Notes: generated by a model from the letters alone, not told the origin. DNA of 64,000 nucleotides from Candidatus Poribacteria bacterium (GCA_965215265.1 OZ244048.1:4000001-4064000), one strand, 5' to 3'; shown: positions 46,203 to 64,000, counted from the stretch's first letter. Translations and numbers: made by a program.

Positions 46203-46453
46203 TTTTTTCGTATATCTCCGTACCGTCAACGTTTATGTCGTGAGTACTCGTGTGTAAATCTCGTCGGAGATTCCTTAGGTTATGTCTTTAAAAATCTAAA
46301 CATCAGAACCCTCTGGCGAGATTTTCACGGGTTTTAGCATAGCCGCAGCCTTCATGGGGCTGCAGTAGACAAAAAAAACGGGATTTTCACGGGTTTTAGC
46401 ATAGCCGCAGCCTTCATGGGGCTGCAGTAGACAAAAAAGCTGCAGTAGACAAA
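46203..46453. repeat. Family-1 ~170-bp palindromic element with a 62-bp tandemly duplicated arm
   Basis: ttttcgtata...aaatctcgtcggag...ctctggcgagattt...tagacaaaa; unit starting 46320 is repeated at 46382. Confidence 0.85.
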
Positions 46454-47344: not shown

Positions 47345-48616
47345 ATGCAATTTCAATTTGAATTTCAGAGAACAGTGCTGAGCGTTAGCCAAATCACAGA
47401 GACACTGAAGCATCTGATACAGCAACAACCAAATCTTCAAAATGTGTGGGTGCAAGGACAACTTTCAAACTACGTGCGTGCCGGATCGGGCCATATCTAT
47501 TTCACGTTGAAGGATGCCAAAAGTCAAATCCCGTGTGTCTTATTCCAGAATTACGCTTCCCGTCTACGGTTTGCTCCGCATGATGGCGATGAAGTGCTGG
47601 TTCAAGGGCAGGTAAACGTTTACCCGCCACAAGGCAAATATCAGATAAACGTCACAGCGGTTGAACCACGTGGGATTGGTGCGTTGCAGAGAGCCTTTGA
47701 AGCATTGAAACAGAAACTTGCAGACGAAGGCATTTTTGACGATAAACATAAAAAGCCTCTCCCCAAATTCCCCCAGAGAATCGGTGTTATTACTTCCGCA
47801 TCCGGTGCTGCAATTCAGGATATCCGGCATCAACTTGAAAAAAGGTATCCGTTAGCGGAACTCTGGCTCCATCCGACGCTGGTTCAAGGTGAACACGCCC
47901 CAGCACAGATTGCGGAAGCCGTTCAAAGTATGAATTTTTCTGCACAACGCTCAGAGCCCCCTATAGATGTTTTGATTGTCGCGCGCGGTGGCGGCTCACT
48001 TGAAGACCTCTGGGCATTTAACGAAGAGCGCGTTGCACGTGCTATTTTCGATTCTGCAATTCCGGTCGTATCAGCTGTTGGCCATGAAACAGATTACACG
48101 ATTGCCGATATGGTGGCAGACCATCGTGCACCGACACCTTCAGCGGCAATTGAGCATCTGGTGCCAGACAGGCTTGAACTTCTCGTAGACTTGGGCAGTC
48201 GGGAGCAACGGCTGCATCGAATAACGGAGTGGAAACGGCAGGCACTCAAAGCACAATTAGTGGAGCTCGAAAGACGGCTTTCTCCAATTCGACAAAAAGA
48301 TAAGATAAATGAGCTGTCGCAGACGGTGGATAACCTTGAATCGGCATGTAAAACGGCAGTAGCACGCAGCCTGGATGAGCATCAGCGCACACTTGCGAAT
48401 CTCGCGGAACGTTTGCATGCCCTCAGCCCCCTCGCCACTTTAAAGCGGGGATATAGCATTAGCCGAAAAGAGAACGGCGGAATTTTAACGCGGGTTGAGC
48501 AGGTTGACGTGGGGGAGTTGATTGAAATTGAGCTGTCACAAGGAAGGCTTTTATGTTCTGTTCAGCAACGTTTTTTCGGAGCAGATTTTCGTCTACAGGA
48601 GCCCAATACGGATTGA
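47345..48616 (+). CDS. xseA: Exodeoxyribonuclease VII large subunit
   Basis: SGHIYFTLKD, RGGGSLEDLWAFN, SAVGHETD, APTPSAA, LSPLATLKRGYS. Confidence 0.95.
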   Translation: MQFQFEFQRTVLSVSQITETLKHLIQQQPNLQNVWVQGQLSNYVRAGSGHIYFTLKDAKSQIPCVLFQNYASRLRFAPHDGDEVLVQGQVNVYPPQGKYQINVTAVEPRGIGALQRAFEALKQKLADEGIFDDKHKKPLPKFPQRIGVITSASGAAIQDIRHQLEKRYPLAELWLHPTLVQGEHAPAQIAEAVQSMNFSAQRSEPPIDVLIVARGGGSLEDLWAFNEERVARAIFDSAIPVVSAVGHETDYTIADMVADHRAPTPSAAIEHLVPDRLELLVDLGSREQRLHRITEWKRQALKAQLVELERRLSPIRQKDKINELSQTVDNLESACKTAVARSLDEHQRTLANLAERLHALSPLATLKRGYSISRKENGGILTRVEQVDVGELIEIELSQGRLLCSVQQRFFGADFRLQEPNTD

Positions 48617-48755
48617 TGTTTTGATAACCTTTGCATAAAACTCGTCAGAGCCTGCTTAGGTATCGTCTTTAAAGTCAAAACCTAAGGAATCTCCGAAGAG
48701 ATTTACACGGTAATAAACATAACATCAGGCGTTATCGGGCTTAAATATACAAAAA
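48586..48755. repeat. Family-1 ~170-bp palindromic element overlapping the xseA 3' end
   Basis: ttttcgtctacaggagcccaat...aaactcgtcagag...ctccgaagagattt...aatatacaaaaa. Confidence 0.85.
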
Positions 48756-48770
48756 GAGGTATACGAAAAA

Positions 48771-48986: not shown

Positions 48987-50973
48987 CAGCCCTGCGTCAC
49001 TAAAAACGCTTGACATCCAAGAACTTAAGACGCTTGCAGAGGAGATGCGTGCGTATCTGTTAGCGGTACTTTCAGAACATCCGGGACATTTCGCGCCTAA
49101 CTTTGGTACGGTTGAGTTGGCCATCGCACTTCACACCGTTTTTGATACACCGCATGATAAAATTATCTGGGACATTGGGCACCAAGCATATCCACATAAA
49201 CTTCTCACCGGACGTAGGGACGCGTTTCCAACACTCCGCCAAACGGGCGGCATCAGTGGGTTCCTGAGTCGTGCAGAAAGTGAGTACGATGTGTTTGGTG
49301 CGGGGCATTCAAGTACCTCCATCGCAGCGGCCCTCGGCATCGCGACTGCACGGGATGTTACCAATGCTGATTACAAAGTTGTGGCTGTCATTGGTGATGG
49401 TGGATTAACCGGAGGCATGGCCTTTGAAGGGCTAAACGCTGCAGGTGCTCCCGATCTATTCAAACGTAAAAAGGATATAGTGGTTATCCTAAACGACAAT
49501 CAGATGTCTATTTCAAACACTGTGGGGGCCCTGGGGCATCACTTGAAAGCATACTTGGAAGCGTCGAAACATTTTCATAAACTGACAAGTTCGCCGAACT
49601 ATAATCTGCTGCGTGAAGGTGCCAAGGAGCTCATCAACCGGATTTCCCCAGAGGCAAAGGGACTCGCGAGTAGGGTTGAGGCGGCTTTGAAACTCGGAAC
49701 ACTATTTGAGGAGCTCGGATTTCGCTACTTCGGACCCTTAGACGGTAACGACTTAGAGGCATTAATCCCAGTGCTGACAGGTGTCCGGGAGTTGTCTGGA
49801 CCGCGCTTCATTCATCTCGTCACTGAAAAAGGCCGCGGCTATCCTCCTGCTGAGACAGATCCAGTCGGCTTCTATAGCGTCAGCGGTCCGTTCGATCTGG
49901 AAACAGGAAAGCCAACGTCGAAAAAATCGATCACGCCCACGTATACGCAGGTGTTCAGCAAAACTTTGATTGACTTGGCGAAACGAGACGCACGTATTGT
50001 CGGTGTCACGGCCGCCATGCCAGGCGGAACCGGGTTGGATAAGTTTCAGAAAGAATTTCCGAACCGATGCTTTGATATCGGCTTGGCTGAGCAATGTGCT
50101 GTCACGTTCGCTGCCGGACTCGCCACAGAGGGGTTGCGTCCTGTTGCTGCTATCTATTCTACCTTCCTACAACGTGCCTACGACCAGGTGCTCCACGATG
50201 TATGCATTCAGAATCTGCCTGTAATCTTCGCACTGGATCGGAGCGGACTTGTGGGTGCTGACGGTCCAACGCACCACGGCGTTTTTGATTTGGCATATCT
50301 TCGCTCTATGCCTAATATGGTAGTTATGGCACCCAAGGATGAGAACGAACTCCAGCATATGGTGAAAACCGCACTCGTTTACGAAGATGGCCCCATTGCC
50401 TTCCGTTATCCTCGTGGTAGTGGTGTTGGAGTCAAGATAGAGGAAAAACCGAAGGCACTTCCAATTGGTAAAAGCGAAATCGTCAGAAAGGGTGATGATC
50501 TGCTAATCGTTGCCCTCGGAAATCGGGTTTATCCAGCATTGGCTGCTGCACAAAAGCTGGAAGAAGGGGAGAGTTTCACGCAGAGTTTACGGGGAACAAA
50601 GGATGTAGAAAAACACAATGTCCGTTCCGATATATATCAAACGGCAGTACCACACAAAGTCTCCGCAGCGGTTATCAATGCACGTTTTGTCAAACCCTTG
50701 GATATTGAGTTGATTCTTCCGTTGGCTGAGCGTATTGGCAACGTCATTACGGTTGAGGATGGGGTGTTGATGGGAGGATTCGGCAGTGCAGTTTTAGAAG
50801 CACTTGCAGCCGCAGGTATGACAGATATACACGTGAAGACACTCGGCATTCCTGATCGATTCGTTGAGCACGGTGATATTCAGCAGCTTTACGCGATGTA
50901 CGGGTGTGATGAAACCGCTATCCTCCGCGCCGCTGCGGATTTTTTCGTTTTTTCGTCTACAGGAGCCCAATGA
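48967..50973 (+). CDS. dxs: 1-deoxy-D-xylulose-5-phosphate synthase
   Basis: WDIGHQAYPHK, GHSSTS, GDG...N, YSTFLQR, DGPTH, RYPRG, RFVKPLD. Confidence 0.95.
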   Translation: MFLEQIDSPASLKTLDIQELKTLAEEMRAYLLAVLSEHPGHFAPNFGTVELAIALHTVFDTPHDKIIWDIGHQAYPHKLLTGRRDAFPTLRQTGGISGFLSRAESEYDVFGAGHSSTSIAAALGIATARDVTNADYKVVAVIGDGGLTGGMAFEGLNAAGAPDLFKRKKDIVVILNDNQMSISNTVGALGHHLKAYLEASKHFHKLTSSPNYNLLREGAKELINRISPEAKGLASRVEAALKLGTLFEELGFRYFGPLDGNDLEALIPVLTGVRELSGPRFIHLVTEKGRGYPPAETDPVGFYSVSGPFDLETGKPTSKKSITPTYTQVFSKTLIDLAKRDARIVGVTAAMPGGTGLDKFQKEFPNRCFDIGLAEQCAVTFAAGLATEGLRPVAAIYSTFLQRAYDQVLHDVCIQNLPVIFALDRSGLVGADGPTHHGVFDLAYLRSMPNMVVMAPKDENELQHMVKTALVYEDGPIAFRYPRGSGVGVKIEEKPKALPIGKSEIVRKGDDLLIVALGNRVYPALAAAQKLEEGESFTQSLRGTKDVEKHNVRSDIYQTAVPHKVSAAVINARFVKPLDIELILPLAERIGNVITVEDGVLMGGFGSAVLEALAAAGMTDIHVKTLGIPDRFVEHGDIQQLYAMYGCDETAILRAAADFFVFSSTGAQ

Positions 50974-51120
50974 CGCTCTATGTTTTGTAAAAACCTGTGG
51001 AAATCTCGTCTGAGCCGTCTGGTGTTTTGACTTTAAAGACATTACCTAAGTGCGTCTCCTACGAGAGTTACATCGGATTTAACACGACATAACCTTTGAT
51101 GGTACGGAGAGATACAAAAA
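50950..51120. repeat. Family-1 ~170-bp palindromic element overlapping the dxs 3' end
   Basis: ttttcgtctacaggagcccaat...aaatctcgtctgag...ctcctacgagagtt...gatacaaaaa. Confidence 0.85.
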
Positions 51121-52116
51121 ATCAAAAAAAAACGGATAGACCTATTGCTGGTAGAGCGAAAGTTTGCAGAAAGCCGGGAGCAAGCAAAACGTCTCGTCTT
51201 GGCTGGGGCTGTAAGTATTAATGGGAGCTCGCAGCTGAAACCGGGACAGCAAGTTTCTAATGATGTCGAGATTGTTGTGCAGCAACCCCAAAAATATGTG
51301 AGTCGGGGAGGCATCAAACTTGAAAAGGCACTAAACCACTTTGAGATAGAGGTGAAAAACCGTGTCCTGCTTGACGTGGGTGCCTCGACAGGAGGGTTCA
51401 CGGATTGCTTACTGCAGCACGGCGCAGAGTTTGTTTACGCCGTGGATGTCGGGTATGGGCAGCTCGCGTGGAAACTTTGCACTGATGCACGCGTGCAAGC
51501 CGTTGATAAGACTAACATCCGGTACATCAACCCAGAGATTTTTACACGTCCGTTGTCTATGGCTGTTATTGATGTCTCGTTTATTTCTCTGCGAACCGTC
51601 TTGCCTGTTGTTGTCCAGCTCCTTAAGGACAATGCTGCCAAATTTCCGGTGAACTGTCCTGATATCGACGTGATTGCCCTCATTAAACCCCAATTTGAAG
51701 CTGGACGCATCCATGTTAAAAAAGGGGGCATTGTTCCGGAGAAATCGGTGCATATTGAGACAATAGAGAACCTTATCGCATTCGTTGAAGGGGCTCCAGT
51801 ATACGAAAAACCTGCCATCTATAGATCGGAGCCCTTCGATGTATTGAATCATAACATCAAGAGGCTCAGACGAGATTCACACACGAGTTATGATTACCTA
51901 GACGTTGAAGGGGCTCCAGTATACGAAAAACCTGCCACTACTGTGATGGGACTTACGTATTCGCCTATCCACCAAGGTATCGGAAATCTTGAGTACCTAC
52001 TTTGGCTCAAGGTTTTTTGTCAAGGGCTCAAACACGTTTCTATTGAAAGGCAAAAAGGTCTGCCTGTCAAAGAAATTGTGGAGAACGCACATCACTGTTT
52101 TTATCGAGGTTCGTAA
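51121..52116 (+). CDS. tlyA: TlyA family rRNA 2'-O-methyltransferase with a repeat-derived insertion; start uncertain
   Basis: KKRIDLLLV S4 start, YVSRGGIKL, DVGASTGGFTD, DVSFISL, LIKPQFE, GNLEY. Confidence 0.9.
   Translation: MKKKRIDLLLVERKFAESREQAKRLVLAGAVSINGSSQLKPGQQVSNDVEIVVQQPQKYVSRGGIKLEKALNHFEIEVKNRVLLDVGASTGGFTDCLLQHGAEFVYAVDVGYGQLAWKLCTDARVQAVDKTNIRYINPEIFTRPLSMAVIDVSFISLRTVLPVVVQLLKDNAAKFPVNCPDIDVIALIKPQFEAGRIHVKKGGIVPEKSVHIETIENLIAFVEGAPVYEKPAIYRSEPFDVLNHNIKRLRRDSHTSYDYLDVEGAPVYEKPATTVMGLTYSPIHQGIGNLEYLLWLKVFCQGLKHVSIERQKGLPVKEIVENAHHCFYRGS
51783..51937 (+). repeat. Intragenic repeat-derived insert with 35-bp direct repeats 120 bp apart
   Basis: cgttgaaggggctccagtatacgaaaaacctgcca at 51783 and 51903; the interior matches the reverse complement of 62252-62330. 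Confidence 0.9.
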
Positions 52117-52121
52117 AGACT

Positions 52122-55100
52122 ATGTGGACGTTAATCAAACGTGTCGGGAAAAACAGAAAGTGGCTTTTGAGCACGTTGTTACTTATTAGTCTCGCTTGTA
52201 CGTTAGCATTTTACATCCGGTCTGTCGCTTTTCTGGATTGGATAGGCGAGCATGTTGAAAAGGAGATTCAAGAGCAGATAACTTCTGAATACATTGTGCA
52301 TCTCGGCAAAATTCAAGGGAATATTTTGCGAGGTGTTCACATTGAAGGCATCCGGGTTGTCACAGCAGAAGAACAGAGTGACGTGATTTCCACCGGTGAG
52401 ATTGTCCTAAAGTACAATCTGCTTGCCCTCTTACGGCGGAAATTTGTTGTTACTGCCTTAGAGGTTTCTGAACCGTGGATTCATGCCGTCGTGTCTGAAA
52501 ACGGAACGTTCAATCTAACGCAAATTTTTCGCCCGCGTTCTCCAGAAACTGACTCACAATTCAGATTTGCAGTAAAACAGGTTCACTGTCAGGGTGGAGT
52601 CATCCGTTTTGCCATGATTAAGCAGAACCTTGAGATTGCAATTGAAGGGGTGTCTCTTGAACTGAAAGGTCCGCTAAACGAATGGCATCATACCGGAAAA
52701 TTTGCGATTAAGACCGGCTCCCTTCGCATTGGGCGAAGTTCGCACGTAACTCAGACAAAACTACCCGGAGAACTGACAACAACTATAGAACGTTTCAAGG
52801 CAGACTTTCTGCTCTCTACTAGTGGCAATCAGCTAAAGGAGCTCTTCCTTAAATTCGGCAATTCGGCTTTGAAAATTAGAGGTGAGTCCAATCCGAAAAT
52901 GTGGAGCAGTGAGATAACATTGCTGTTAGATTTGAAACAGCATCAGCATCTTATTACACACGTGCTCCGTCAAACTGAAGTGAAATCCTTACTTCAAGGG
53001 ATGGCTGTTGTTAGACTGAGCGTGCAAGAGACCGATGCTACTTTGGGCGGCACGTTGAGAATAAACATGTCGCCCGTGACGTTGCGACATCCTAAACGAG
53101 AAGAGACAGTAAATATAACGGACGTGGATGTTGATGCAGATTTCGCACTGCATCCGGTGCCGAGATTGACGTTAAGTACCTTCCGTATACGAGGCGCGGG
53201 CGGTAGTTTGGCTGGAAAAGCGCGGCTCACCGTTCAACCCGCTGTGCAAGCCGCGGAAAACAGCGACGAGAACCCAGAAACGGAACTGTTGGCTCGCCTC
53301 CAACGTCTTGCCAAACGCCCTATCATCTACGAGGGAGAGTGGCACGCGACGAAAATTCACCTTGAGTCACTTTTCCCGATACTACCAGAGTGGATACGAG
53401 ATATCTTTGATGTTGACACAACCTCGGCGAACCTATTGACAAGCGGAGCTTTTAGCGGGAGCTACCCAGGCTTCAACAAGAGAGCACCAGACATCAAAAA
53501 TCGGCATCCCGTGAAAACCCTCCGGCTCCACAGCAAGTTCCAACTTACAAATACTGTCTTAAACGATGTCCCCGTTGCCAATTCAACCTTCAACTGCACT
53601 ATTGAAGATTTAAAAGGTGCTGGCGCTGTGGTTGATGTTATAGGCAATCTGGATGCAGAGACCGGGCTCAGCCTCAAGGGACCGCTCGTACCAACGCCCG
53701 GAAAACCCTTACAACTCCAGCTGACTTCTATTGATATGAGCAAGGTCATGCGTGTTTTCAACTCGGCGGACCTCGGGGGAAAAGCGGTGCTCACTGCGAA
53801 CATTTCTCATGACAAAACCACAACCGGTTCTATTGAAATACCGGACGCAACCTTCATGAACATCCCCCTCGGCGTTTTGGGAGGCGGTTTTCGTTATAGA
53901 ACCGGACAGGTATTCATTGAAAATGGTTTCCTCAATAAGGGGGAGAGTCGCCTCTCAATTGTCGGCACTGTTGATGTTGCCGGAGAATTGCCAGCGAATT
54001 TTCGGGTAGTCGGGGCACCTTCCGTGCAAGTTGCGGATTATAAATTACTTTTATTCGGAACGGATTATCCTATTGAGGGGGTGGTTACCGGTGAACTGCA
54101 TTTGGACGGTTCATTGACACATCTGAACGGCAGAGGCAACTTTCATGTGAACGCGGGTGAGGCGTGGGGTATCCACCTAGATGCACTAACGCTTCCGTTG
54201 GAAATTGAGAATTACGGCATTAGAATTCCTGATTTCAAGATTTCTGCGCGCGGCGAAGAAGTTATTTTTAACTTTGATATGCAACCAGACGGCAGCTTTG
54301 AGCTCGCGATAAAAAACCGAGAGGGGGTTCCTATCCGATTAACCGAAATTGCAAAAGCAGCAGATATTTCTGACTTTCCCATAGGCGCAAAGATGGATGT
54401 CGACTTCGTGGGAACACAGCGCGTCAACGAGGCGCTTGATTTTCGAGTTGGCCTCAATTTTTCAGACATCACATTTGAAAATAACCCCCTTGGTGATGCT
54501 TATCTGCTTGGTAGACTTGTAGAAGATGGAAACCGAGCTACCCTTTTATCTCCAGCTGGCGATGAAGATAAAAAGGGAGGTTTCTTCCGTTTTGATGGAT
54601 ACGGGTTTGGAGCGGCGAGTCAAATACAAGGCGAAATTAGCACTGAGGGTGACAGTCCATACCATTTCGTAGTCGTCAGCGAAGCCATGCCAGTTTCGCC
54701 TATTTTGCGTATCTTTAATCAGGAACTTCAGGCAGTTACAGGTACAGCCGATAGTACCGTTCACATCCGCGGCAACCTTACCGAACTGAGCCCGGATGCA
54801 TCTGGTTCCAAACAGGTCTTTCCGTACAATCTGGATATTACGGTGGAACCTACATTACTACACTATCAGGGCGTTGCATTTGAAAATGAAAAACCGATTC
54901 ACTTGGAATTGGTAGATGACGTTTGGACGATTAAGGCGTTCGCACTCACAGCGGAAAAAGCCCCGTTTATTGAAGTCGCCGGCACATTTCTGGCTGGAAG
55001 TGGAGCAATAGATGTACGCGCTGCCTCAACAGGGCTCGCGCTAGATGCTATCGGAAAAATGTTCCCCACCCACCCAAGTCCAATCAGTGGTATTGCACAG

Positions 55101-58100
55101 TATACACTCACTGCAAGCGGAACAATGGCTCAGCCTATCCTTAAAGGAAACTGGGCAATTCCGCACTTAAGTATCAAAACAGAAATCGGGGATGTCGTTA
55201 TCAGCGATGCAGAGGGGCGGATAGAATATCAAAAGAATTACGTGATTATTGAACCGTTTACCTTGCAGGTTTTAGGAAATGAAATAGAAATCGAAGGAGA
55301 TATCGCAGTAAATCCAGAGGAATTCACGAGTTCTTATCTGAACGTGACGAGCCGTGCTGCTACCTTGGATTTAGCAAAATTTGAGACTTTAGTCAGAAAC
55401 GCTCTTCCACCTAAAACAGTGGAGTTGCTTGTTGGTGAAAAGAAATCGGAGATGGCGGGGAAAAGGTATTCTTCTCTCATGGCAGAGACAGAAAACCGAA
55501 CCCCGCCAGTGGATTCACCGGACTTAATTGCCGGAATGTTAGACGTTTTGATAGGACTGAGTGGGAGCCTTGCTAAACCGGTTATTACGGTTCATGCTGC
55601 TAGTGTGCAGGATGCACTGATACGCGTTGGCGTGTTCGCTAAGCCAATTAGATTGGAAAATTTGCACATGGAACTGACACCAACTCTAAAATTTATTCAG
55701 GTGCGGAACTTGGATGCTGATTGGTATATAGGCAATGGGGCTTATCACGCTAAAGGCGAAGCCTCATTTGCGACGGATGCACTAAACGATATGCGGTTTG
55801 CAATGGATGTGTCCGCTGAGAACATGGAGATAAGAGATTTCACCGCATTGGTTTGGGATAGAGAGGAGTTGGGTGGGTGGGAGCCCAACTCCTCGCTCAC
55901 GTCTACGAAAATAGACCCGGTACACTTGGAACCGACATCACCGATTCATGGCACGCTTTCAGGAGACGTGAGGCTCGTACGGAAGGGGAGAGGAGGAGTT
56001 GGGCTCCCACCCACCCAAGTCCAACTCCTCGACGATATATCGATGGGGGCGGAGGTTTATCAATTGAATCTTTCTGCATACTCGATGCATATCCTGAATC
56101 GTTCACCTTTTAAAGTTTCATCGGTAAAGGAGGGGTTCACTGGACATATTCCGCTGCGGCTTGTTTCTGATGAAGTGGATATAGAAGTGGATGTGAAGTT
56201 TGGAGGCACGTTGGTTTCTCCGGAAATCGTCACAACATGGCACGGTACCCTTGGGCACGTGGATTCGGTAGGTGAGGTAGAATATCAAAATGAACAGTTA
56301 AACCTTGTTAATATTGAACTCACATCTCAAGACACTCATAAAGCGCACAAATTAATGCTCAGCGGTATCATTCCGCTCAATGGACGGTTTGACCGAAACA
56401 TCGACGTGCATCTCCGTGGCCATGAACTTCCGCTGATTTTTTTTCCGGGGCTTGATGCATTTTTATCTGAGGTAGAAGGCGTTGTTGATATAGATGTAGT
56501 ACTTCGCGGTACAACCCGTTCACAGTATTTAGAGGGAAGCGTTTCGGTAGAGGCCCCACGGCTCTGGCCGAGAAACTTTCCTGAACCGCTACAGAATACA
56601 AAATTGCAGCTCAAAGCACAGAAAAACCTCATAGATGTAACGAAATTCCAATTTGAGTTAGCAGATGCGAACTGCACGCTTGAACAGAGTCAATTGATTT
56701 TAGACGGGTTAATCCCCCAAAGATTTGAAATCGCCGGACTGAAGGTTGAAGACTTAAACCTCGTTAAAATTTTTCCACAGTTCTCCGAACCGCTTAGCCA
56801 TAATGCGTTTATAACAGATGGGAAACTGACTACAATTCTTAAAGAATTCGTACTGCCGTTGGATGGTTTTTTTGCGAATCCAGTCGGTTCCTTGGACAGA
56901 CAGGTCTCTCTTGGAGAGATGATGCCCGTCCCCAAAATTCGAGAGATGCCAACTCTAGTACGTGCAGCAGAAGTCTCAACAGGACTGTTGGAAATAGAGC
57001 ATGCCCGTTTAGTTTTTGTGCTTCCATACGCTAACCAACCCTACGATTTCCGGAGTAAAGAGCCGATTCCGATTCGGTTCAAGCGAGGCGTTATCTCCTT
57101 AGATGAGGGCTTTCATTTTGAAAATTTTTATACGGAACCAGGAGGAACGGAGGCAGGGCCATTTCCAAACGGGATCGGAGATGGCGAGGAAAAGGTATTC
57201 TTCTCTCATGGCAGAGACAGAAAACCGAACCCTGCCAGCCGGACACCGGATGAAGAGCCGCTTTTATCTGATGGTAAGGGTAACTTTGTTAGGACGGTTT
57301 TTAGTGGGGATGTGGGGAGCCGATGGGAACTAAAAGGCGATTTAGATACCACAGTTCGGTTAAAAAATTTTGATGTATCGGCCCTAACCAGACGGTGGCC
57401 CCCGGAATATCGAGTGAAGGGAACGTTATCCGGGAGTTTACACGTTGATGGCACCGCTGCAAATCCGAGGATAACAGTCCGACGTAACAAACCAGCAAAC
57501 AGAAAAGAGAAAGATGGGATTGAACTAAACGGCATCCCCGTGGAGCTCAATGGACGGCTCCGCTACCAAACTGGAGAATGGAAAATTTCAACCAGACGCC
57601 CTTTTCAAGTTACCCTTGGCGAGAATCAACTGACCTGTGTGCTTACTGTACCCTTAGAACTATCTAAAATTGCCGAGCGTTTCGGATTAGACCGTGCTGT
57701 CGATGAGACAGACCTAACACGAGATAGTTTAGTCGGCTCTACAAATTTTGTTGGGGAAATAGATGTCGCGGTAAGAAATCCTAACATGCTTTCATTTGTC
57801 GTGCCGGGATTTCGGTCTGCAAAAGGCAGCGGGACAACGCATATCACATTTTTCGGGACGCTTAATTCGCCAAAACTGAGTGGAATAGCGCGGTTCAACG
57901 ACTTTGCGGTTCAACTTCCAGAGGCAGGGCTATCCCTGAAAAATACAACGGGGCACCTGGAACTGTTGGAGACACGAGTTGACATCAAACAGGTTGAAGG
58001 GGTATTGAACGGGGGCGACTTTGCTCTCACAGGATCCTTGATATCGCCAGATGAACAGAGAATATGGCAGTTCCCGAATCAGGCTACCATAGATGTGAGT

Positions 58101-58949
58101 AGCGAGCTTAAAACAACAGCCGTTTTTGAACAACAAGGGCAGTATCAAGTTGTTCTTGATTCTGCAACGTTTCACCTGCACGGAAAACTTTCCCAGCCAA
58201 CTCTAACCGGGGACGTTAATGTTCGCTCCGGGTACTATCAGCAAAATTGGGAAGATGTTACAGATTGGCTTACTGCTTCTTCAGAGGTAACGGAAGTTGA
58301 ATTAGCATTAGATTATCCGGTTTTGAGAGATTTGGTTTTACAGTTCGGGGTGAACATTTCCGATAGTTTTCATGTGTTATCTTCGGTTGTCGGGCCGACT
58401 GACGTTGAAATTGCATGCTTTGGCCGCCTTATCGGGCCAGTTCAGCAACCCATTTTCACCGGGAACGTATCGTTCCTCAGAGGTACAGTAGGGCTCTTTG
58501 CACGTACTTTTGAAATTGTTAGTGGTTCAGATATCAGAAACCAGAGTACTGACACTTTTAATCCAGATCTTAACCTCTCACTTAGCACCGCTGAACCGTT
58601 GCATGGTGTCCCCCTTAGAGATGGCAGTACCGTAGATCTGCTCGTTAAGCTTGCGTATACCGGTAAATTGGACAATCCGAATCTCAATATTAGCGCGGAG
58701 GCGCTTAGTGCTTCTACGACATATTTGCCAACTGATGAGGAGATTCTCGCGCTGCTGACGCAACGTTTCTCTATTTCACGTGCCTTCGGGGGAATTACCT
58801 TCACCTTTTTACCGTTTTCACATGGGGTGAAAGGACGGAATATCAGTGCTGAGTATCCGCTGCCTTTAGGTAGAAATATGTCTATCAGAGTTGAACGTGA
58901 TGAGGAAGGGGAATATGGCGTTGATTTTCAATTAGAGGGCCGTTTTTAG
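52122..58949 (+). CDS. tamB: TamB/AsmA-like translocation and assembly module protein
   Basis: 2275 aa, N-terminal TM anchor, beta-taco-like repeats, DUF490-like C-terminus ending GVDFQLEGRF; adjacent to an Omp85 gene. Confidence 0.75.
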   Translation: MWTLIKRVGKNRKWLLSTLLLISLACTLAFYIRSVAFLDWIGEHVEKEIQEQITSEYIVHLGKIQGNILRGVHIEGIRVVTAEEQSDVISTGEIVLKYNLLALLRRKFVVTALEVSEPWIHAVVSENGTFNLTQIFRPRSPETDSQFRFAVKQVHCQGGVIRFAMIKQNLEIAIEGVSLELKGPLNEWHHTGKFAIKTGSLRIGRSSHVTQTKLPGELTTTIERFKADFLLSTSGNQLKELFLKFGNSALKIRGESNPKMWSSEITLLLDLKQHQHLITHVLRQTEVKSLLQGMAVVRLSVQETDATLGGTLRINMSPVTLRHPKREETVNITDVDVDADFALHPVPRLTLSTFRIRGAGGSLAGKARLTVQPAVQAAENSDENPETELLARLQRLAKRPIIYEGEWHATKIHLESLFPILPEWIRDIFDVDTTSANLLTSGAFSGSYPGFNKRAPDIKNRHPVKTLRLHSKFQLTNTVLNDVPVANSTFNCTIEDLKGAGAVVDVIGNLDAETGLSLKGPLVPTPGKPLQLQLTSIDMSKVMRVFNSADLGGKAVLTANISHDKTTTGSIEIPDATFMNIPLGVLGGGFRYRTGQVFIENGFLNKGESRLSIVGTVDVAGELPANFRVVGAPSVQVADYKLLLFGTDYPIEGVVTGELHLDGSLTHLNGRGNFHVNAGEAWGIHLDALTLPLEIENYGIRIPDFKISARGEEVIFNFDMQPDGSFELAIKNREGVPIRLTEIAKAADISDFPIGAKMDVDFVGTQRVNEALDFRVGLNFSDITFENNPLGDAYLLGRLVEDGNRATLLSPAGDEDKKGGFFRFDGYGFGAASQIQGEISTEGDSPYHFVVVSEAMPVSPILRIFNQELQAVTGTADSTVHIRGNLTELSPDASGSKQVFPYNLDITVEPTLLHYQGVAFENEKPIHLELVDDVWTIKAFALTAEKAPFIEVAGTFLAGSGAIDVRAASTGLALDAIGKMFPTHPSPISGIAQYTLTASGTMAQPILKGNWAIPHLSIKTEIGDVVISDAEGRIEYQKNYVIIEPFTLQVLGNEIEIEGDIAVNPEEFTSSYLNVTSRAATLDLAKFETLVRNALPPKTVELLVGEKKSEMAGKRYSSLMAETENRTPPVDSPDLIAGMLDVLIGLSGSLAKPVITVHAASVQDALIRVGVFAKPIRLENLHMELTPTLKFIQVRNLDADWYIGNGAYHAKGEASFATDALNDMRFAMDVSAENMEIRDFTALVWDREELGGWEPNSSLTSTKIDPVHLEPTSPIHGTLSGDVRLVRKGRGGVGLPPTQVQLLDDISMGAEVYQLNLSAYSMHILNRSPFKVSSVKEGFTGHIPLRLVSDEVDIEVDVKFGGTLVSPEIVTTWHGTLGHVDSVGEVEYQNEQLNLVNIELTSQDTHKAHKLMLSGIIPLNGRFDRNIDVHLRGHELPLIFFPGLDAFLSEVEGVVDIDVVLRGTTRSQYLEGSVSVEAPRLWPRNFPEPLQNTKLQLKAQKNLIDVTKFQFELADANCTLEQSQLILDGLIPQRFEIAGLKVEDLNLVKIFPQFSEPLSHNAFITDGKLTTILKEFVLPLDGFFANPVGSLDRQVSLGEMMPVPKIREMPTLVRAAEVSTGLLEIEHARLVFVLPYANQPYDFRSKEPIPIRFKRGVISLDEGFHFENFYTEPGGTEAGPFPNGIGDGEEKVFFSHGRDRKPNPASRTPDEEPLLSDGKGNFVRTVFSGDVGSRWELKGDLDTTVRLKNFDVSALTRRWPPEYRVKGTLSGSLHVDGTAANPRITVRRNKPANRKEKDGIELNGIPVELNGRLRYQTGEWKISTRRPFQVTLGENQLTCVLTVPLELSKIAERFGLDRAVDETDLTRDSLVGSTNFVGEIDVAVRNPNMLSFVVPGFRSAKGSGTTHITFFGTLNSPKLSGIARFNDFAVQLPEAGLSLKNTTGHLELLETRVDIKQVEGVLNGGDFALTGSLISPDEQRIWQFPNQATIDVSSELKTTAVFEQQGQYQVVLDSATFHLHGKLSQPTLTGDVNVRSGYYQQNWEDVTDWLTASSEVTEVELALDYPVLRDLVLQFGVNISDSFHVLSSVVGPTDVEIACFGRLIGPVQQPIFTGNVSFLRGTVGLFARTFEIVSGSDIRNQSTDTFNPDLNLSLSTAEPLHGVPLRDGSTVDLLVKLAYTGKLDNPNLNISAEALSASTTYLPTDEEILALLTQRFSISRAFGGITFTFLPFSHGVKGRNISAEYPLPLGRNMSIRVERDEEGEYGVDFQLEGRF

Positions 58950-58950
58950 G

Positions 58951-61900
58951 ATGGGAATGCGACATAAGTTGGCGGTACAATTTGCGAAATGCTCGTTTTT
59001 TGGAAATTTACTGGTGTTTTTCACGTTCACCTTTGTGTGTTACGGCTTGCAGGAGCTGCCGAGAGCCAGTGCAGATGTTTCAGGAGACATAGGAGTTTCT
59101 GAGGCTATAACAAGTGAGACGCAACAGGGGCTGCCAGTGCATAATTCTGACGAGAATTTATATGAAAATCTCATTGTACGGAAAATTGACTATGACATTG
59201 ACGGTGTCCCTGTTTATGAGACTGCAGTAAGGAATAGGCTCAGGGAGCAGACATTTCTAAAAATTGGCACGCCGATTTCTCGGTTTGATGTTCAACGCAG
59301 CGTTAAATCTCTCTATAGTTCAGCAGCGTATTCTCAGATTAATGTTTATGCCCAAGTTATATCGGAAGGCGTTGTATTAAAATTTCAGTTGACGAGTGTT
59401 GCACGTATAGAAAAAATTGAAGTCAAGGGGGTTCCTGATGGGTTGCGTTCAGCGATTCAAAATACGATACAATCAAAACCGGGCGAGGCGTATGTGCCTG
59501 TATTTGCTAAGAACGATGTGGAACGCATCAAACGGGTGTGCGGCGAGCACGGTTATTTTAATGTGAAAGCCCTGTTTAAAATAGATACTATTGTATCGGA
59601 TTCCGCTGAAAGAATTGTCCCCGAGGGGAGGGTGAATTCTTCACGTGAAGACGAATCCCTCAACCTTTCGGACACTTCCAAAGCAAGAGCTTTAATCTAT
59701 CAGATCACCTTAGGCACTCCGTCCCGCATCGCTGGGCTGCAAATTCGAGGGCATGCAGCGATGTCCGCAGGTCGCATCAAGGCGGCTTGCCGCCTTGGCA
59801 TCGACGATATCTACCGCAAAACAGCTGTAGAGGCGGATATCCAATCGATTCGAGAACTGTATCGGAAAAATCGCTATTATACGCCTATTATTGTCCCTCA
59901 TTTTGACCCTAAAACAGGAGTACTACAATTTCGGATTGATGAGGGGAAACAGGTGCTGCTTGAGTTCGTTGCTTCAGATATCAAAATTGATGAGAAGGCG
60001 TTGATCGAGGAGGCGAGGTTTTCGTCAACTTCGCCTGCTTTGTGGCAGCAATCTATAATACGGTATTTTGAGAAGAGAGGTTACATCGGGACAACAGTGG
60101 ATGAAATACCTTTAGCAGTTGGTCCTTTAAAGGGGAAAGGGGGGATTAAGTTTATCATAAACCCAGGCGTACGCTATGTTGTTACACGCGTAACCTTTTC
60201 AGGGAATCAAGTATTTTCGGCAGCACAGTTGTTACAAGAGATGGAGCTGCACCCTACGGAAGGGGTTTGGCGGCTTTTCGGAAAAAAACGTTTTTTTGAT
60301 AAACAGATCCTAAAAAAAGATAGACAACGGCTGAAAATTTTATATGAGAAAACCGGGTATCCCTACGCTTCTATTGAGACAATAGCCACACCCGATAAAG
60401 ACAACGCCAATAAACAGAACATTGGAGAAATGGCGATTCATGTGATTATCACTGAATCCTATAAAGAGGTGATACATCGATGTCGTTTTCAGGGCAATCG
60501 CGCTGTAGGAACGGATATACTGCTTCAGCATCTCCCTTCTGATTTCCAATTGCCCCAACCGAATGTACGATTTGTTAGAATAGCCTATCAGAATGCCGTC
60601 GAAAAATCCTATCATGAACGTGGATACATTGATGTGACGGTAGAAGCACGATATATAGCCCAGACTGAAACGCCTATTTTTCAGGTGGAGGCTGATTTTT
60701 CGGAAGCCCTTGATGAGGGGCGACTGCCCGGGAAACTTCAAATGGAATTTGTCAATCGCGACTTACCGCTTGCCGGGACCTTTATCGCCTTAAAAATAGG
60801 AGAACTTTGGAGTATTCAAGATGTAGCCGGCAATCCTCGATATTCTTTGATACAACGTCAAACGTACCTTGAGGTTTTTGAACACGGGATGCTCCACCTT
60901 AATATTTTTGAAGGGGAACAATCGTACTTCGGCAAATTCCATTTTGAAGGCGAGCTCGATGTGAAATCGTATGTTCTCACACGTGAGGTAGCACACCTTC
61001 AGGGCACACTCTATACTCCTACGAAATTGAACGAAGCTGTACAGAATCTTTACGATACTGGCATTTTCCAACGCGTCCAACCCAAGCATAAGCCCCGTGG
61101 AACCACGACAGCTACCAGCACACCGGGAACATCCCTATGGGTGGCAGGGAAAAGGACAGAGAAAGATACCTATCCTGCCACTATTTTGCCAAAACACATT
61201 TCCCATCAGCACCGCGAAACTTGGATTGAACTTCAAAGACAGAAACCCGGTGCCTATGGCGGCGGTATCGGATACAGTTCTTTGGACGGCATCCGGCTCT
61301 CTTTTAGGTTAAGGCATTGGAACCTTCTCCAACGGAATATTCGAGGCAGTCTCCGAGGAAGGTTAGGCACGCGGGGCTATCTCTACGACGCAACCCTCAC
61401 GGAACCGTGGCTGGTCCGTCGAATTCACGGCAGTTTACAATTCTCCGGCAGAAATTTGGAGGAAGACGATAATGTACAGGCACTCCAAGGGAATTTTATC
61501 CTGAGCCGGAAATTCGCACGCGCTCATCTGCTCAATTTACAATATAACTACCGGAATCTACGCCAACAGGTCGAAGAAAATCTGAGAGATATCAGTTTTT
61601 CTGAACTTGAGGCACAACGAACAACCGTTAGCAGTCTACGATTCACATGGGCACATGACAGCCGGTCGCCCTACCTGAATCCAACGTCGGGCATGTTGAA
61701 TGAAGTGACGCTTGAATATGCAGGCGGTTTTTTGCAAGGAGAAACGAGTTTTGTAAAAACCACCACAGATTTCCGATATTACCAACAGCTCAGTACATCG
61801 GGACCTGTCTTGGCAACTGCATTGCGTTTTGGCATCACAAATGGGTTAGGCTCAAATCGTAGAGCAGAGCTCATCTCCTTTGAACGATTCTGGGCAGGGG

Positions 61901-62244
61901 GCATGAACACCATCCGCGGCTATGCAGAACGCGGGCTCGGCCCATTAGATAGCACCGGCCGATACCGTGGCGATGTACGCCTTATCTTCAACACGGAGCT
62001 GCGCTCCCCCAATTATGCGCTGTTTGATATCCTCCATCTTGGCGGCGTGGCGTTCTTTGATACGGGGAATGTATGGGGTTCAGTGGACGACATTGCCTTA
62101 GAGACGTTGCCTTCCGCAGTTGGTGTAGGGCTCCGCTTAACCTGGGGACCCATCACAGGCGGGATTGATTATGCTGTACCCCTACTTTCTATTCCAGGTG
62201 TTTCAGAAAATACATCCTATTTACAACTCGGAAGCACCTTTTAA
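58951..62244 (+). CDS. Omp85 family outer membrane assembly protein (BamA/TamA-like) with POTRA domains
   Basis: Repeated POTRA motifs (FSGN, Y...GY), ERFWAGGMNTIRGY lid motif, FFDTGNVW, terminal F. Confidence 0.9.
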   Translation: MGMRHKLAVQFAKCSFFGNLLVFFTFTFVCYGLQELPRASADVSGDIGVSEAITSETQQGLPVHNSDENLYENLIVRKIDYDIDGVPVYETAVRNRLREQTFLKIGTPISRFDVQRSVKSLYSSAAYSQINVYAQVISEGVVLKFQLTSVARIEKIEVKGVPDGLRSAIQNTIQSKPGEAYVPVFAKNDVERIKRVCGEHGYFNVKALFKIDTIVSDSAERIVPEGRVNSSREDESLNLSDTSKARALIYQITLGTPSRIAGLQIRGHAAMSAGRIKAACRLGIDDIYRKTAVEADIQSIRELYRKNRYYTPIIVPHFDPKTGVLQFRIDEGKQVLLEFVASDIKIDEKALIEEARFSSTSPALWQQSIIRYFEKRGYIGTTVDEIPLAVGPLKGKGGIKFIINPGVRYVVTRVTFSGNQVFSAAQLLQEMELHPTEGVWRLFGKKRFFDKQILKKDRQRLKILYEKTGYPYASIETIATPDKDNANKQNIGEMAIHVIITESYKEVIHRCRFQGNRAVGTDILLQHLPSDFQLPQPNVRFVRIAYQNAVEKSYHERGYIDVTVEARYIAQTETPIFQVEADFSEALDEGRLPGKLQMEFVNRDLPLAGTFIALKIGELWSIQDVAGNPRYSLIQRQTYLEVFEHGMLHLNIFEGEQSYFGKFHFEGELDVKSYVLTREVAHLQGTLYTPTKLNEAVQNLYDTGIFQRVQPKHKPRGTTTATSTPGTSLWVAGKRTEKDTYPATILPKHISHQHRETWIELQRQKPGAYGGGIGYSSLDGIRLSFRLRHWNLLQRNIRGSLRGRLGTRGYLYDATLTEPWLVRRIHGSLQFSGRNLEEDDNVQALQGNFILSRKFARAHLLNLQYNYRNLRQQVEENLRDISFSELEAQRTTVSSLRFTWAHDSRSPYLNPTSGMLNEVTLEYAGGFLQGETSFVKTTTDFRYYQQLSTSGPVLATALRFGITNGLGSNRRAELISFERFWAGGMNTIRGYAERGLGPLDSTGRYRGDVRLIFNTELRSPNYALFDILHLGGVAFFDTGNVWGSVDDIALETLPSAVGVGLRLTWGPITGGIDYAVPLLSIPGVSENTSYLQLGSTF

Positions 62245-62251
62245 TTTTCCC

Positions 62252-62421
62252 TTTTTCGTATATTTCAGTCCCATCAACGTCTATATTTTGATAACTCGTG
62301 TATAAATCTCGTCTGAGCCGTTCGATGTTTTGATTTTTAAAGACTATACCTAAGTCATCTCCGACGAATAAGAAGTTCTCCCTGCGAGTGGCAGGGACAA
62401 TTCTTAACGGAGATATACAAA
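62252..62421. repeat. Family-1 ~170-bp palindromic element with a nested family-3 hairpin (62370-62405)
   Basis: tttttcgtata...aaatctcgtctgagcc...ctccgacga...ggagatatacaaa, between convergent genes. Confidence 0.85.
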
Positions 62422-63348
62422 TTAATCGGCGGAAAACGGTTTCCCTAATGCAAGGGGGGCCTCTGCTCGTCCGACGCATCCAGCTAAGACGGCTAAGCAC
62501 AAGACATAAGGGAGCATCAACAACAATTGGTACGGGATGTTCCAGCCCAATGCCTGAATACGGACATCCAGAGCACTGCCAAGTCCAAAAAGCAACGCTG
62601 CACCACACGCTTTGACAGGGTGCCACTTTCCAAAAATGACGATTGCCAATGCGATAAACCCGCGTCCGACCGTCATGCCGGGGGTAAAATATGGAACATC
62701 TGCCAACGAAAGATAGCCGCCTGCCATACCTGCTATCGTGCCTGCAAATAGGAGGCACCACGTTCGTAATCGAACGACGTTTCCCCCCACCGCTGAAACT
62801 GCCTTTGGATGCTCACCGCATGCCCGAATCAGGAGCCCTGCACGCGTATGGTAGAGAAACAGATACACGCACGGCACTAGTAAGAACGTTATAAATACCA
62901 GAACGTTGTGTGTAAAGAGTGCCTCCCCGACAAAAGGGATTCGCCAGAGCAGTGGAATCTTGACGGTTTTGAACGCAGCAACCCGAAGTGCACTCCCCGT
63001 TACGCCAAAAAGCCTTTGATAGATGACTTCTGTCAATCCTAATGCTAACAGCGTCATCGCTGTTCCCACGATGACTTGATCTCCGCGGAGCCTGAGCGCA
63101 ACGAGTGCAAAAACTGCTGCTGTAACAAAGCCGCTTGAGCCTGCGACGAGAAGCCCTATCCACGGGGCGAGGAGGCCTAATTCTGCACTGTAGAACGAAC
63201 CGACCATGCCGAAAAACGCCCCGATGAGCATCATGCCTTCAATACCGATGTTAATCACGCCTGCTCGCTGCGAGATGACTTCGCCTAACGCTGCGAGTAG
63301 GAGGGGTGTTGCGCCTCGAATTGTTGCGGAAATAATATCTTCAAACAT
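62422..63348 (-). CDS. ABC transporter permease (nucleoside/CUT2 NupC-like)
   Basis: PLLLAALGE..SQRAGVINIGIEG, RACGEHP, GRGFIALA..IFGKW, MLPY. Confidence 0.9.
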   Translation of the reverse strand: MFEDIISATIRGATPLLLAALGEVISQRAGVINIGIEGMMLIGAFFGMVGSFYSAELGLLAPWIGLLVAGSSGFVTAAVFALVALRLRGDQVIVGTAMTLLALGLTEVIYQRLFGVTGSALRVAAFKTVKIPLLWRIPFVGEALFTHNVLVFITFLLVPCVYLFLYHTRAGLLIRACGEHPKAVSAVGGNVVRLRTWCLLFAGTIAGMAGGYLSLADVPYFTPGMTVGRGFIALAIVIFGKWHPVKACGAALLFGLGSALDVRIQALGWNIPYQLLLMLPYVLCLAVLAGCVGRAEAPLALGKPFSAD

Positions 63349-63717
63349 TTTTATATATCTCCGTACCATCAAAGGTTATGTTGTGTCAACTCCGATGTAA
63401 ATCTCGTCGGAGGTTAACTAGGTATAGTCTTTAAAATCTAAACATAAACGGCTCAGGCGAGATTTGTGCTAAGGTGTTCATTACATCTGTTGTGTTGTGC
63501 GCCTGTATACGAAAATGGCTCAGGCGAGATTTGTGCTAAGGTGTTCATTACATCTGTTGTGTTGTGCGCCTGTATACGAAAATGGCTCAGGCGAGATTTG
63601 TGCTAAGGTGTTCATTACATCTGTTGTGTTGTGCGCCTGTATACGAAAACGGCTCAGGCGAGATTTTCACAGTCATTGACAATACATCAGGCGTTATCGG
63701 GCTTAAATATACAAAAA
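63348..63717. repeat. Family-1 element expanded by three 67-bp tandem units (63450-63650)
   Basis: Units begin at 63450, 63517 and 63584, with a fourth inner motif at 63651. 370 bp minus 201 bp leaves 169 bp. Confidence 0.9.
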
Positions 63718-64000
63718 TTTGACCAAAAATCCATTTTGATGGAACTATAGCCGATGACGTATAGAAGGAGTGTTGCCTGCATGACGAACGTGACTTTGTC
63801 AGAGATGCCGACGCTCCTCTGCATCGCATAGGAACCGGTGGTCAGTGTTCCAAACAAGAGTGCTGAGCCAATTGTGACAAGTGGATGCAATTTGGCGAGG
63901 AGAGCAACTGCAATAGCGGTGTACCCGTAGCCGGGCGAGAAATTCAGAAACAGGCGGCGTGTTAGTGCCATTAATTCAATCGCGCCTCCGAGTCCAGCCA
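63687..64000 (-). CDS. ABC transporter permease (NupB-like), 3' part
   Basis: AGLGGAIE...GYGYTAIAVALLAKLHP...ALLFG; runs off the window end. Confidence 0.85.
   Translation of the reverse strand, partial: AGLGGAIELMALTRRLFLNFSPGYGYTAIAVALLAKLHPLVTIGSALLFGTLTTGSYAMQRSVGISDKVTFVMQATLLLYVIGYSSIKMDFWSNFCIFKPDNA

Follow-up and report, generated by a model that had tools for sequence, protein, structure and literature searches.

A dispersed hairpin repeat occurs twice, in two reading frames, inside a tamB-like gene of Candidatus Poribacteria

A TamB-like gene of a Candidatus Poribacteria bacterium carries nearly the same piece of DNA at two places and reads it in two different frames, which raises the question of what this DNA is and how it came to lie twice within one open frame. 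The gene is located in a 64,000-nt stretch (GCA_965215265.1, OZ244048.1:4000001-4064000), referred to here in its full length as the window; its genome is called G000, and the upstream and downstream segments are copy A (site A) and copy B (site B). The two segments appear to belong to a dispersed repeat, non-autonomous and hairpin-forming, that has expanded in one species and whose survivors within genes are in-frame loops. We put the probability of this reading at about 85%. The gene and the two copies are as follows.

52122..58949, + strand: TamB-like (AsmA-family) gene, host of both inserts, 2275 codons without a stop (open reading frame (ORF) list and translation)
55445..55509, + strand: copy A, hairpin element of the short-loop form with a TCGGAGA left end, read as ...SEMAGKRYSSLMAETENRTPP...
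57174..57238, + strand: copy B, the same element, one base out of phase relative to copy A, read as ...GIGDGEEKVFFSHGRDRKPNPA...

The initial annotation of the window described this as nearly identical DNA of about 75 nt, present twice at a distance of 1729 bp. The identity and the spacing stand, with 63 of 65 nt shared between 55445-55509 and 57174-57238, but the length does not. Past base 65, up to 55522 and 57250, only a weaker similarity with a gapped tail ending in CACCGGA is seen, and since the similarity fades there the shared unit is about 63-65 nt. The two copies have a fully identical core of 44 nt (55459-55502 and 57188-57231), and 100 dinucleotide shuffles of the window gave no match at three or fewer mismatches. 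The spacing equals 3x576+1 nt, and the copies start in codon phases 2 (A) and 0 (B), both inside the ORF 52122-58949. The peptides read from them are ...SEMAGKRYSSLMAETENRTPPVDSPD... and ...GIGDGEEKVFFSHGRDRKPNPASRTPD..., the same as those quoted initially, and the 2275-codon frame is indeed open through both.

The unit is an imperfect palindrome, in line with the earlier description, and folds into a stable RNA hairpin. Copy A has a predicted energy of -31.2 kcal/mol (z -5.2), which none of 200 shuffles equalled, and copy B has -25.2 kcal/mol (z -2.4), with 4 of 200 shuffles equally stable.

The host protein matches the Pfam TamB domain (DUF490, PF04357) at its C-terminus (residues 2106-2215, 44.6 bits against a cut-off of 22.4), and its N-terminus matches DUF748 (residues 11-363) at 47.1 bits, slightly below the cut-off of 50. 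TamB relatives are present in 30 of the 31 genomes searched. In a genome of the same genus, G001, a 2231-aa open frame is colinear with the host protein over residues 3-2275 (61% identity). This ortholog and 15 further ones were aligned with the G000 protein. The G001 ortholog has a 19-aa gap at residues 1111-1129, exactly at copy A, and gaps of 15 and 10 aa at residues 1674-1703, exactly at copy B. The element peptides are found at neither site in any of the 16 aligned orthologs. Thus empty sites, proposed earlier as a check, are present at both elements, and the two segments are not conserved as protein among TamB orthologs, a finding that would have spoken against insertion. The same comparison bears on a native internal duplication, in which the segments would represent a protein motif that recurs within the family. 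The repetitive beta structure of TamB-like proteins would suit such an origin, but the copies are in different frames, give unrelated peptides, are absent from all 16 orthologs, and 135 further loci, most of them non-coding, hold the same DNA. For practical purposes this candidate is ruled out by the difference in frame and by the empty sites.

A misplaced repeat could also give this picture, since short-read contigs break inside the element, which as a repeat confuses assemblers. The stretch or part of it is contained in 19 listed sequencing runs from 10 studies, and its junctions were followed in the Logan contigs of four of these (X1, X5, X6 and X8), each from a different study. In all four, contigs pass from the unique left flank into copy A, and others start at or slightly past copy B and extend into the right flank. 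A single contig leads from inside copy A into copy B in X1 (55474-57217) and X6 (55480-57225); in X5 and X8, a number of shorter contigs together span the interval from inside copy A to 57217. No joint skipping an element was seen in the contigs of the four runs. An assembly artefact is therefore extremely improbable, as four studies join unique tamB flank to the elements on all four sides and the 2275-codon frame stays open through both copies. Because contigs can hide rare variants, empty alleles may exist at low frequency. X6 represents a strain with 17 differences in 1746 nt, and it carries both copies. The mobility was called recent in the initial annotation; this holds in so far as the insertions came after the split from the sister species, but they precede the divergence of strains about 1% apart.

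The G000 genome is a single contig of 4.83 Mb (48% G+C, 95% complete by marker genes), and the tamB copies belong to a large family in it. A search with nhmmer and a four-copy profile gave 144 matches, which correspond to 137 non-overlapping loci at E<0.01. Stop-to-stop ORFs of at least 300 aa contain 25 of the 137 copies, compared to 64.7% of 3000 random positions, so the family is mainly intergenic with a minority in genes, and most of these 25 are located upstream of the likely start codon. In an alignment of the best 70 copies, a short left handle (CCCAGTGGG, TCTATAGAT or ATCGGAGA) is followed by a stem, an inner stem and a loop. The outer stem has the variants GGCAGG, GGCGAG or GGCGGGG, with compensated changes in the opposite arm. 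The inner stem is A/T-rich and leads to a short loop (CATGGAC) in some copies and to a longer inner hairpin in others. The palindrome core is 47-61 nt long with modes at 53-54 and 59-60, and the full unit, left handle included, comes to about 63 nt where the loop is short and 69 nt where it is long. Tetranucleotide tags near the copy ends are rare (GTAG in 6, CGTC in 3 and GACG in 4 of the 137), and GTAG and CGTC are absent from the tamB copies.

The family is restricted to one species. A 76-nt element query found no match at E<=0.01 in 30 related genomes and 31 matches in G000 itself, and a degenerate 23-nt core pattern with 39 sites in G000 had no match among 185,579 species genomes, a set from which the window's own genome was possibly left out. 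A literature search at overview level found no relevant earlier description of such repeats in Poribacteria among the matches listed. Within the family, copies A and B are sisters, each the closest relative of the other, since they share features found in no other copy. Their identity is 97% over 65 nt, and the next-best matches in the genome reach 95% across 44 nt or 100% across 37 nt.

Other genes carry the element as well. The 31 copies in ORFs of at least 150 aa were read manually; eight of the ORFs were scanned against Pfam and seven were compared with G001. Apart from tamB, the following genes contain it.

G000:C1:1120876-1123236: histidine kinase, +23 aa relative to G001, inside HATPase_c
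G000:C1:1123402-1125042: PGI-like gene, +52 aa relative to G001, composite of several modules
G000:C1:4533399-4535600: SpoIIE-type phosphatase, +23 aa relative to G001
G000:C1:921717-923675: 652-aa ORF, +23 aa relative to G001, element antisense
G000:C1:3558454-3563520: C25 peptidase, +23 aa relative to G001, element antisense
G000:C1:3271613-3273568: RecN, +50 aa relative to G001, C-terminal tail made of repeats
G000:C1:2477989-2479956: PBP, partial, C-terminal tail partly element-derived, with a nested second hairpin

Each of these seven genes has an empty or shorter site in G001. Counting the two in tamB, seven insertions are internal, and the net length of each is divisible by three (57, 75, 69, 69, 69, 69 and 156 nt); the other two cases are tails. 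A few more copies near the 5' ends of genes, for example in a TPR protein, are ambiguous. Across genes, the element occurs in three or more sense registers and also in antisense, giving peptides such as SEMAGKRYSS..., GIGDGEEKVFF..., WVAGKGNLLC... and GWRVKGNLLC..., and ...LSSRTEK... in antisense. The use of several registers and both orientations means that conservation is at the DNA level, as was proposed for the tamB pair. The left half of the element in the PBP tail holds a nested second hairpin of about 40 nt (G000:C1:2478037-2478145), showing that insertion of one repeat family into another takes place in coding sequence too.

A k-mer screen for repeats in long ORFs gave 333 intervals, mostly protein repeats and paralogs (WD40, LRR, FGE-type), and was set aside as it yields no reliable total over all families. 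A hairpin filter left 49 intervals, among which only the already known family copies were convincing. Separately, a 1062-aa open frame (G000:C1:4244340-4247528) contains a glyQ-like and a glyS-like part, joined across two in-frame copies of a repeat with CGTC (…CCTCCGACGAGATTTACAC…). It could be a gene fusion bridged by the repeats, or a stop/start may have gone unrecognised.

The copies in genes are not spread evenly over the handle types. All five complete copies with the TCGGAGA handle are in genes (tamB twice, the histidine kinase, the C25 peptidase and the PBP tail), compared to 4 of 52 with CCAGTGGG, 0 of 25 with CTATAGA and 0 of 55 others. In-gene copies are free of stops in a mean of 4.3 of the six frames (n=9) versus 2.7 in the other 128. 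The TCGGAGA copies are stop-free in four to six frames, and their units of 63 or 69 nt would fit any frame in either orientation. Since selection after insertion acts on one frame only, the high count hints that this sub-lineage was largely stop-free before insertion. It is a tentative idea, and on balance an unlikely one, that a "coding-adapted" sub-lineage with the TCGGAGA left end and the compensated stem GGCGGGG...CCCCGCC has been shaped by selection to live in proteins, rather than being a random survivor. Such a sub-lineage may be spreading from one gene to the next. Its origin may lie in the kinase gene, through capture of flanking sequence, an idea prompted by the sister species' empty kinase site, GGAATCGGATGG. 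The site in G001 (L036: GGAATCGGATGGAACGCGGGG) resembles the TCGGAGA handle and the start of the stem; this is a single case, and the resemblance could be chance, a microhomology target or a footprint. No significant remnant was detected with nhmmer and the family profile in the G001 loci, including the kinase site (best E ~1).

The positions of the two inserts in the protein were predicted with an AlphaFold model of residues 1040-1790, computed from a 17-row alignment (the query and its 16 orthologs). The model consists nearly entirely of strands, with a mean confidence (pLDDT) of 78 and a pTM of 0.65. Copy A coincides with a segment of pLDDT<50 (model residues 70-92, protein residues 1109-1131) and copy B lies inside another (model residues 635-682, protein residues 1674-1721). 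Apart from two segments at the small hairpins described below, the remaining ones with pLDDT<50 (519-522 and 550-561) are both short. Both inserts are thus probably in long, variable and likely disordered loops between beta strands, which fits surface loops without proving them. A Foldseek search of the model against the PDB gave no TamB match, and the weak hits to ApoB100 (E 3e-4) and DDB1 were discarded.

The loop at site A also holds inserts in another genus. The orthologs L023 (G007) and L024 (G002) carry in-frame arrays of a GTAG-tagged REP (repetitive extragenic palindrome) there, with four copies in G007 (L023:3864-4076) and three in G002 (L024:3685-3885). This REP has 770 copies in G007, 4483 in G002 and none in G000 and G001. 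It is unrelated to the G000 element and absent from G000 and G001, so the site A loop has been colonised independently by unrelated palindromic repeats.

Such recurrence would suit the idea that the inserts have been put to use, either as mRNA hairpins that slow ribosomes or set decay points in the 6.8-kb tamB message, or as loops that gained a role in TamB. The hairpins (-25 to -31 kcal/mol) clearly exceed shuffled sequences in stability, and both copies are kept in the strain about 1% diverged and in the samples from four studies. However, different genes use different frames and keep no common peptide, the element is absent from the sister species and the 15 further orthologs, its host genes are unrelated (kinase, phosphatase, peptidase, isomerase), and most copies are intergenic. 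A function of the inserts therefore seems improbable.

The checks proposed with the initial annotation all turned out in its favour. Under the preferred reading, a dispersed repeat with in-frame survivors, copies would land anywhere in the genome, and those in genes would survive only if their length is a multiple of three, if they are free of stops in the frame that is hit, and if the protein tolerates an extra loop at their position. The rule of three looks like a filter and not a built-in property, because core lengths vary among the other copies. In tamB, two copies would have survived, translated as 19-25 extra residues in two frames. One may have given rise to the other in a local hop, or both may derive from a single lost master. 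The TamB protein very likely still works, and the inserts are presumably neutral.

Several points weigh against this reading. No RAYT (Y1/HUH transposase, PF01797) was found in G000, in a search whose control matched 6 of 14 known genomes, nor was there any match to IS110 (PF01548), and the DDE type (DDE_Tnp_1, PF01609) gave four weak matches only, three of them barely above the cut-off. Codon-guided DNA alignment of six filled/empty pairs showed no clear direct repeat as a target-site duplication, with at most two to three ambiguous shared bases. Since there is no convincing duplication, we infer transposition, and with it the copying mechanism, from the pattern rather than from mechanism. 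The net gaps in tamB are 57 and 75 nt instead of 63, which makes the exact edges of the inserts in these variable loops uncertain. The number of copies in genes comes from manual reading of the 31 candidate ORFs rather than from gene-caller output. That the inserts are translated is a prediction from the open frame and the multiple-of-three lengths, and the low pLDDT at the inserts is probably in part forced, because in the 17-row alignment only the query has residues there.

The element may alternatively have spread without a transposase, by hairpin-driven template switching or by ectopic gene conversion with chance look-alike sites, the second tamB copy being a conversion product of the first. 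The lack of RAYT and IS110, the marginal DDE matches and the lack of a clear target duplication all agree with this, as does the close relationship of the two tamB copies, and the empty kinase site in G001 (GGAATCGGATGGAACGCGGGG) is like the left end of the element and could serve as microhomology. On the other side, the sharp edges of the 137 copies and their unrelated sites look like the outcome of insertion, the kinase-site resemblance is a single case with no significant nhmmer remnant (E>=1), and a transposase may have been lost or gone unrecognised. We regard this route as doubtful. A search for unpaired element arms, which could mark a parent insertion sequence (IS), was too noisy to read.

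The tamB gene contains a second, low-copy repeat family between copies A and B, and the genes on either side of it are also of interest.

55863..55894, + strand: first hairpin of an inverted pair of a second low-copy repeat family, in tamB (inverted repeat I7, 30 nt, 97% complementary)
55993..56030, + strand: second hairpin of the inverted pair in tamB (inverted repeat I7)
51783..51937, + strand: in-frame insertion of a different repeat family in a tlyA-like gene (ORF 51145-52116) directly upstream of tamB (direct repeat D12)
58951..62244, + strand: Omp85/BamA-like gene adjoining the 3' side of tamB, the expected TamB partner, with Pfam POTRA (four stretches) and Omp85

Each arm of the inverted pair is a hairpin in itself, blastn finds about eight related sites for the family in the genome, and together the two could form a structure of -90 kcal/mol. 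Both fall in segments of pLDDT<50 (model residues 208-232 for the first and 252-263 for the second). Across this stretch the G001 ortholog is shorter by 4+5+6 aa (15 aa). An Rfam search of 55300-57400 at a permissive threshold gave one chance-level match to a miRNA family (E 0.07) over the pair, which was rejected.

The insertion in the tlyA-like gene amounts to about 44 aa and interrupts the FtsJ domain match. It is flanked by two 100%-identical 35-nt direct repeats (D12), 120 nt apart. In the G001 ortholog, the parts that match query residues 1-215 and 263-290 are separated by 9 nt only. The intergenic gaps around tamB are filled by several other repeat families (46205-46445, 48586-48756, 50950-51121, 62253-62367 and 63348-63718). 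Some of these repeats are in tandem, such as three 67-nt units at 63439-63666, and many have the CGTC motif TCTCGTCGGAGAT, whose CGGAGAT part is common to the handle of the tamB copies.

Palindromic repeats that lie in frame within genes are already well described, and the G000 element places them in a new lineage. It has the features of this class, namely a dispersed multi-copy family, a stable hairpin, an open host ORF, an insert length that is a multiple of three, and an empty site. GTAG/CGTC-tagged REPs are described as mostly intergenic, with a minority in frame in genes for known proteins and some genes hit twice at distant sites (PMC3733652). According to the same account, intragenic REP inserts contribute some 20-30 residues, and others make up tails at the N- or C-terminus (PMC3733652, Di Nocera, De Gregorio & Rocco 2013). 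The G000 element resembles these as a short palindromic dispersed repeat that is mostly intergenic, with an in-frame minority, two hits in tamB, and tails (PMC3733652). It differs in size, with a palindrome of 54-60 nt and a unit of 63-69 nt compared to the 20-40 bp given for REPs (PMC3733652). Unlike classical REPs and REPINs, it rarely has GTAG/CGTC tags, and its genome has no detected RAYT gene.

Rickettsia palindromic elements (RPEs) are described as lying in frame in unrelated housekeeping genes without destroying them, and are predicted to be compatible with the protein fold (PMC10969869, PMC3184786). They are about 105-150 bp long, and each family is said to encode one conserved peptide (PMC10969869). 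The G000 element is likewise a selfish palindrome in frame in unrelated genes, going by these descriptions (PMC10969869, PMC3184786). Unlike the RPEs as portrayed there, it has no single conserved peptide and uses three or more sense registers plus antisense (PMC10969869). Its unit is also shorter, it has no sequence relation to RPEs, and its host lineage is different.

MITEs, the miniature transposable elements with inverted repeats, as outlined in the same sources, share with it the non-autonomous nature, inverted-repeat ends, long hairpins, filled and empty sites and occasional in-frame ORF fusions (PMC10969869, PMC3184786). The G000 unit is at the small end of MITE sizes. The six empty sites show no clear target-site duplication, and no parent IS with matching ends was identified. 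The element thus behaves like REPs and RPEs, yet it is not a tagged REP, as tags are rare, its palindrome is longer and no RAYT gene was found; nor is it shown to be a MITE.

The tamB pair is a clean natural case of conservation within a gene that is purely at the DNA level, where the same element in a single gene yields two peptides with no relation to each other. Two loops of a TamB-like protein of lipid or outer-membrane protein assembly are marked by it as tolerating 20-25 extra residues, which is useful for tagging and engineering. Such inserts also matter for annotation, since they inflate protein lengths, split domain matches (HATPase_c, FtsJ, PGI) and create false "novel" motifs. At the site A loop of TamB, unrelated repeat families have settled independently in different genera, and the lineage of G000 is one more among the bacteria with hairpin repeats inside working genes.

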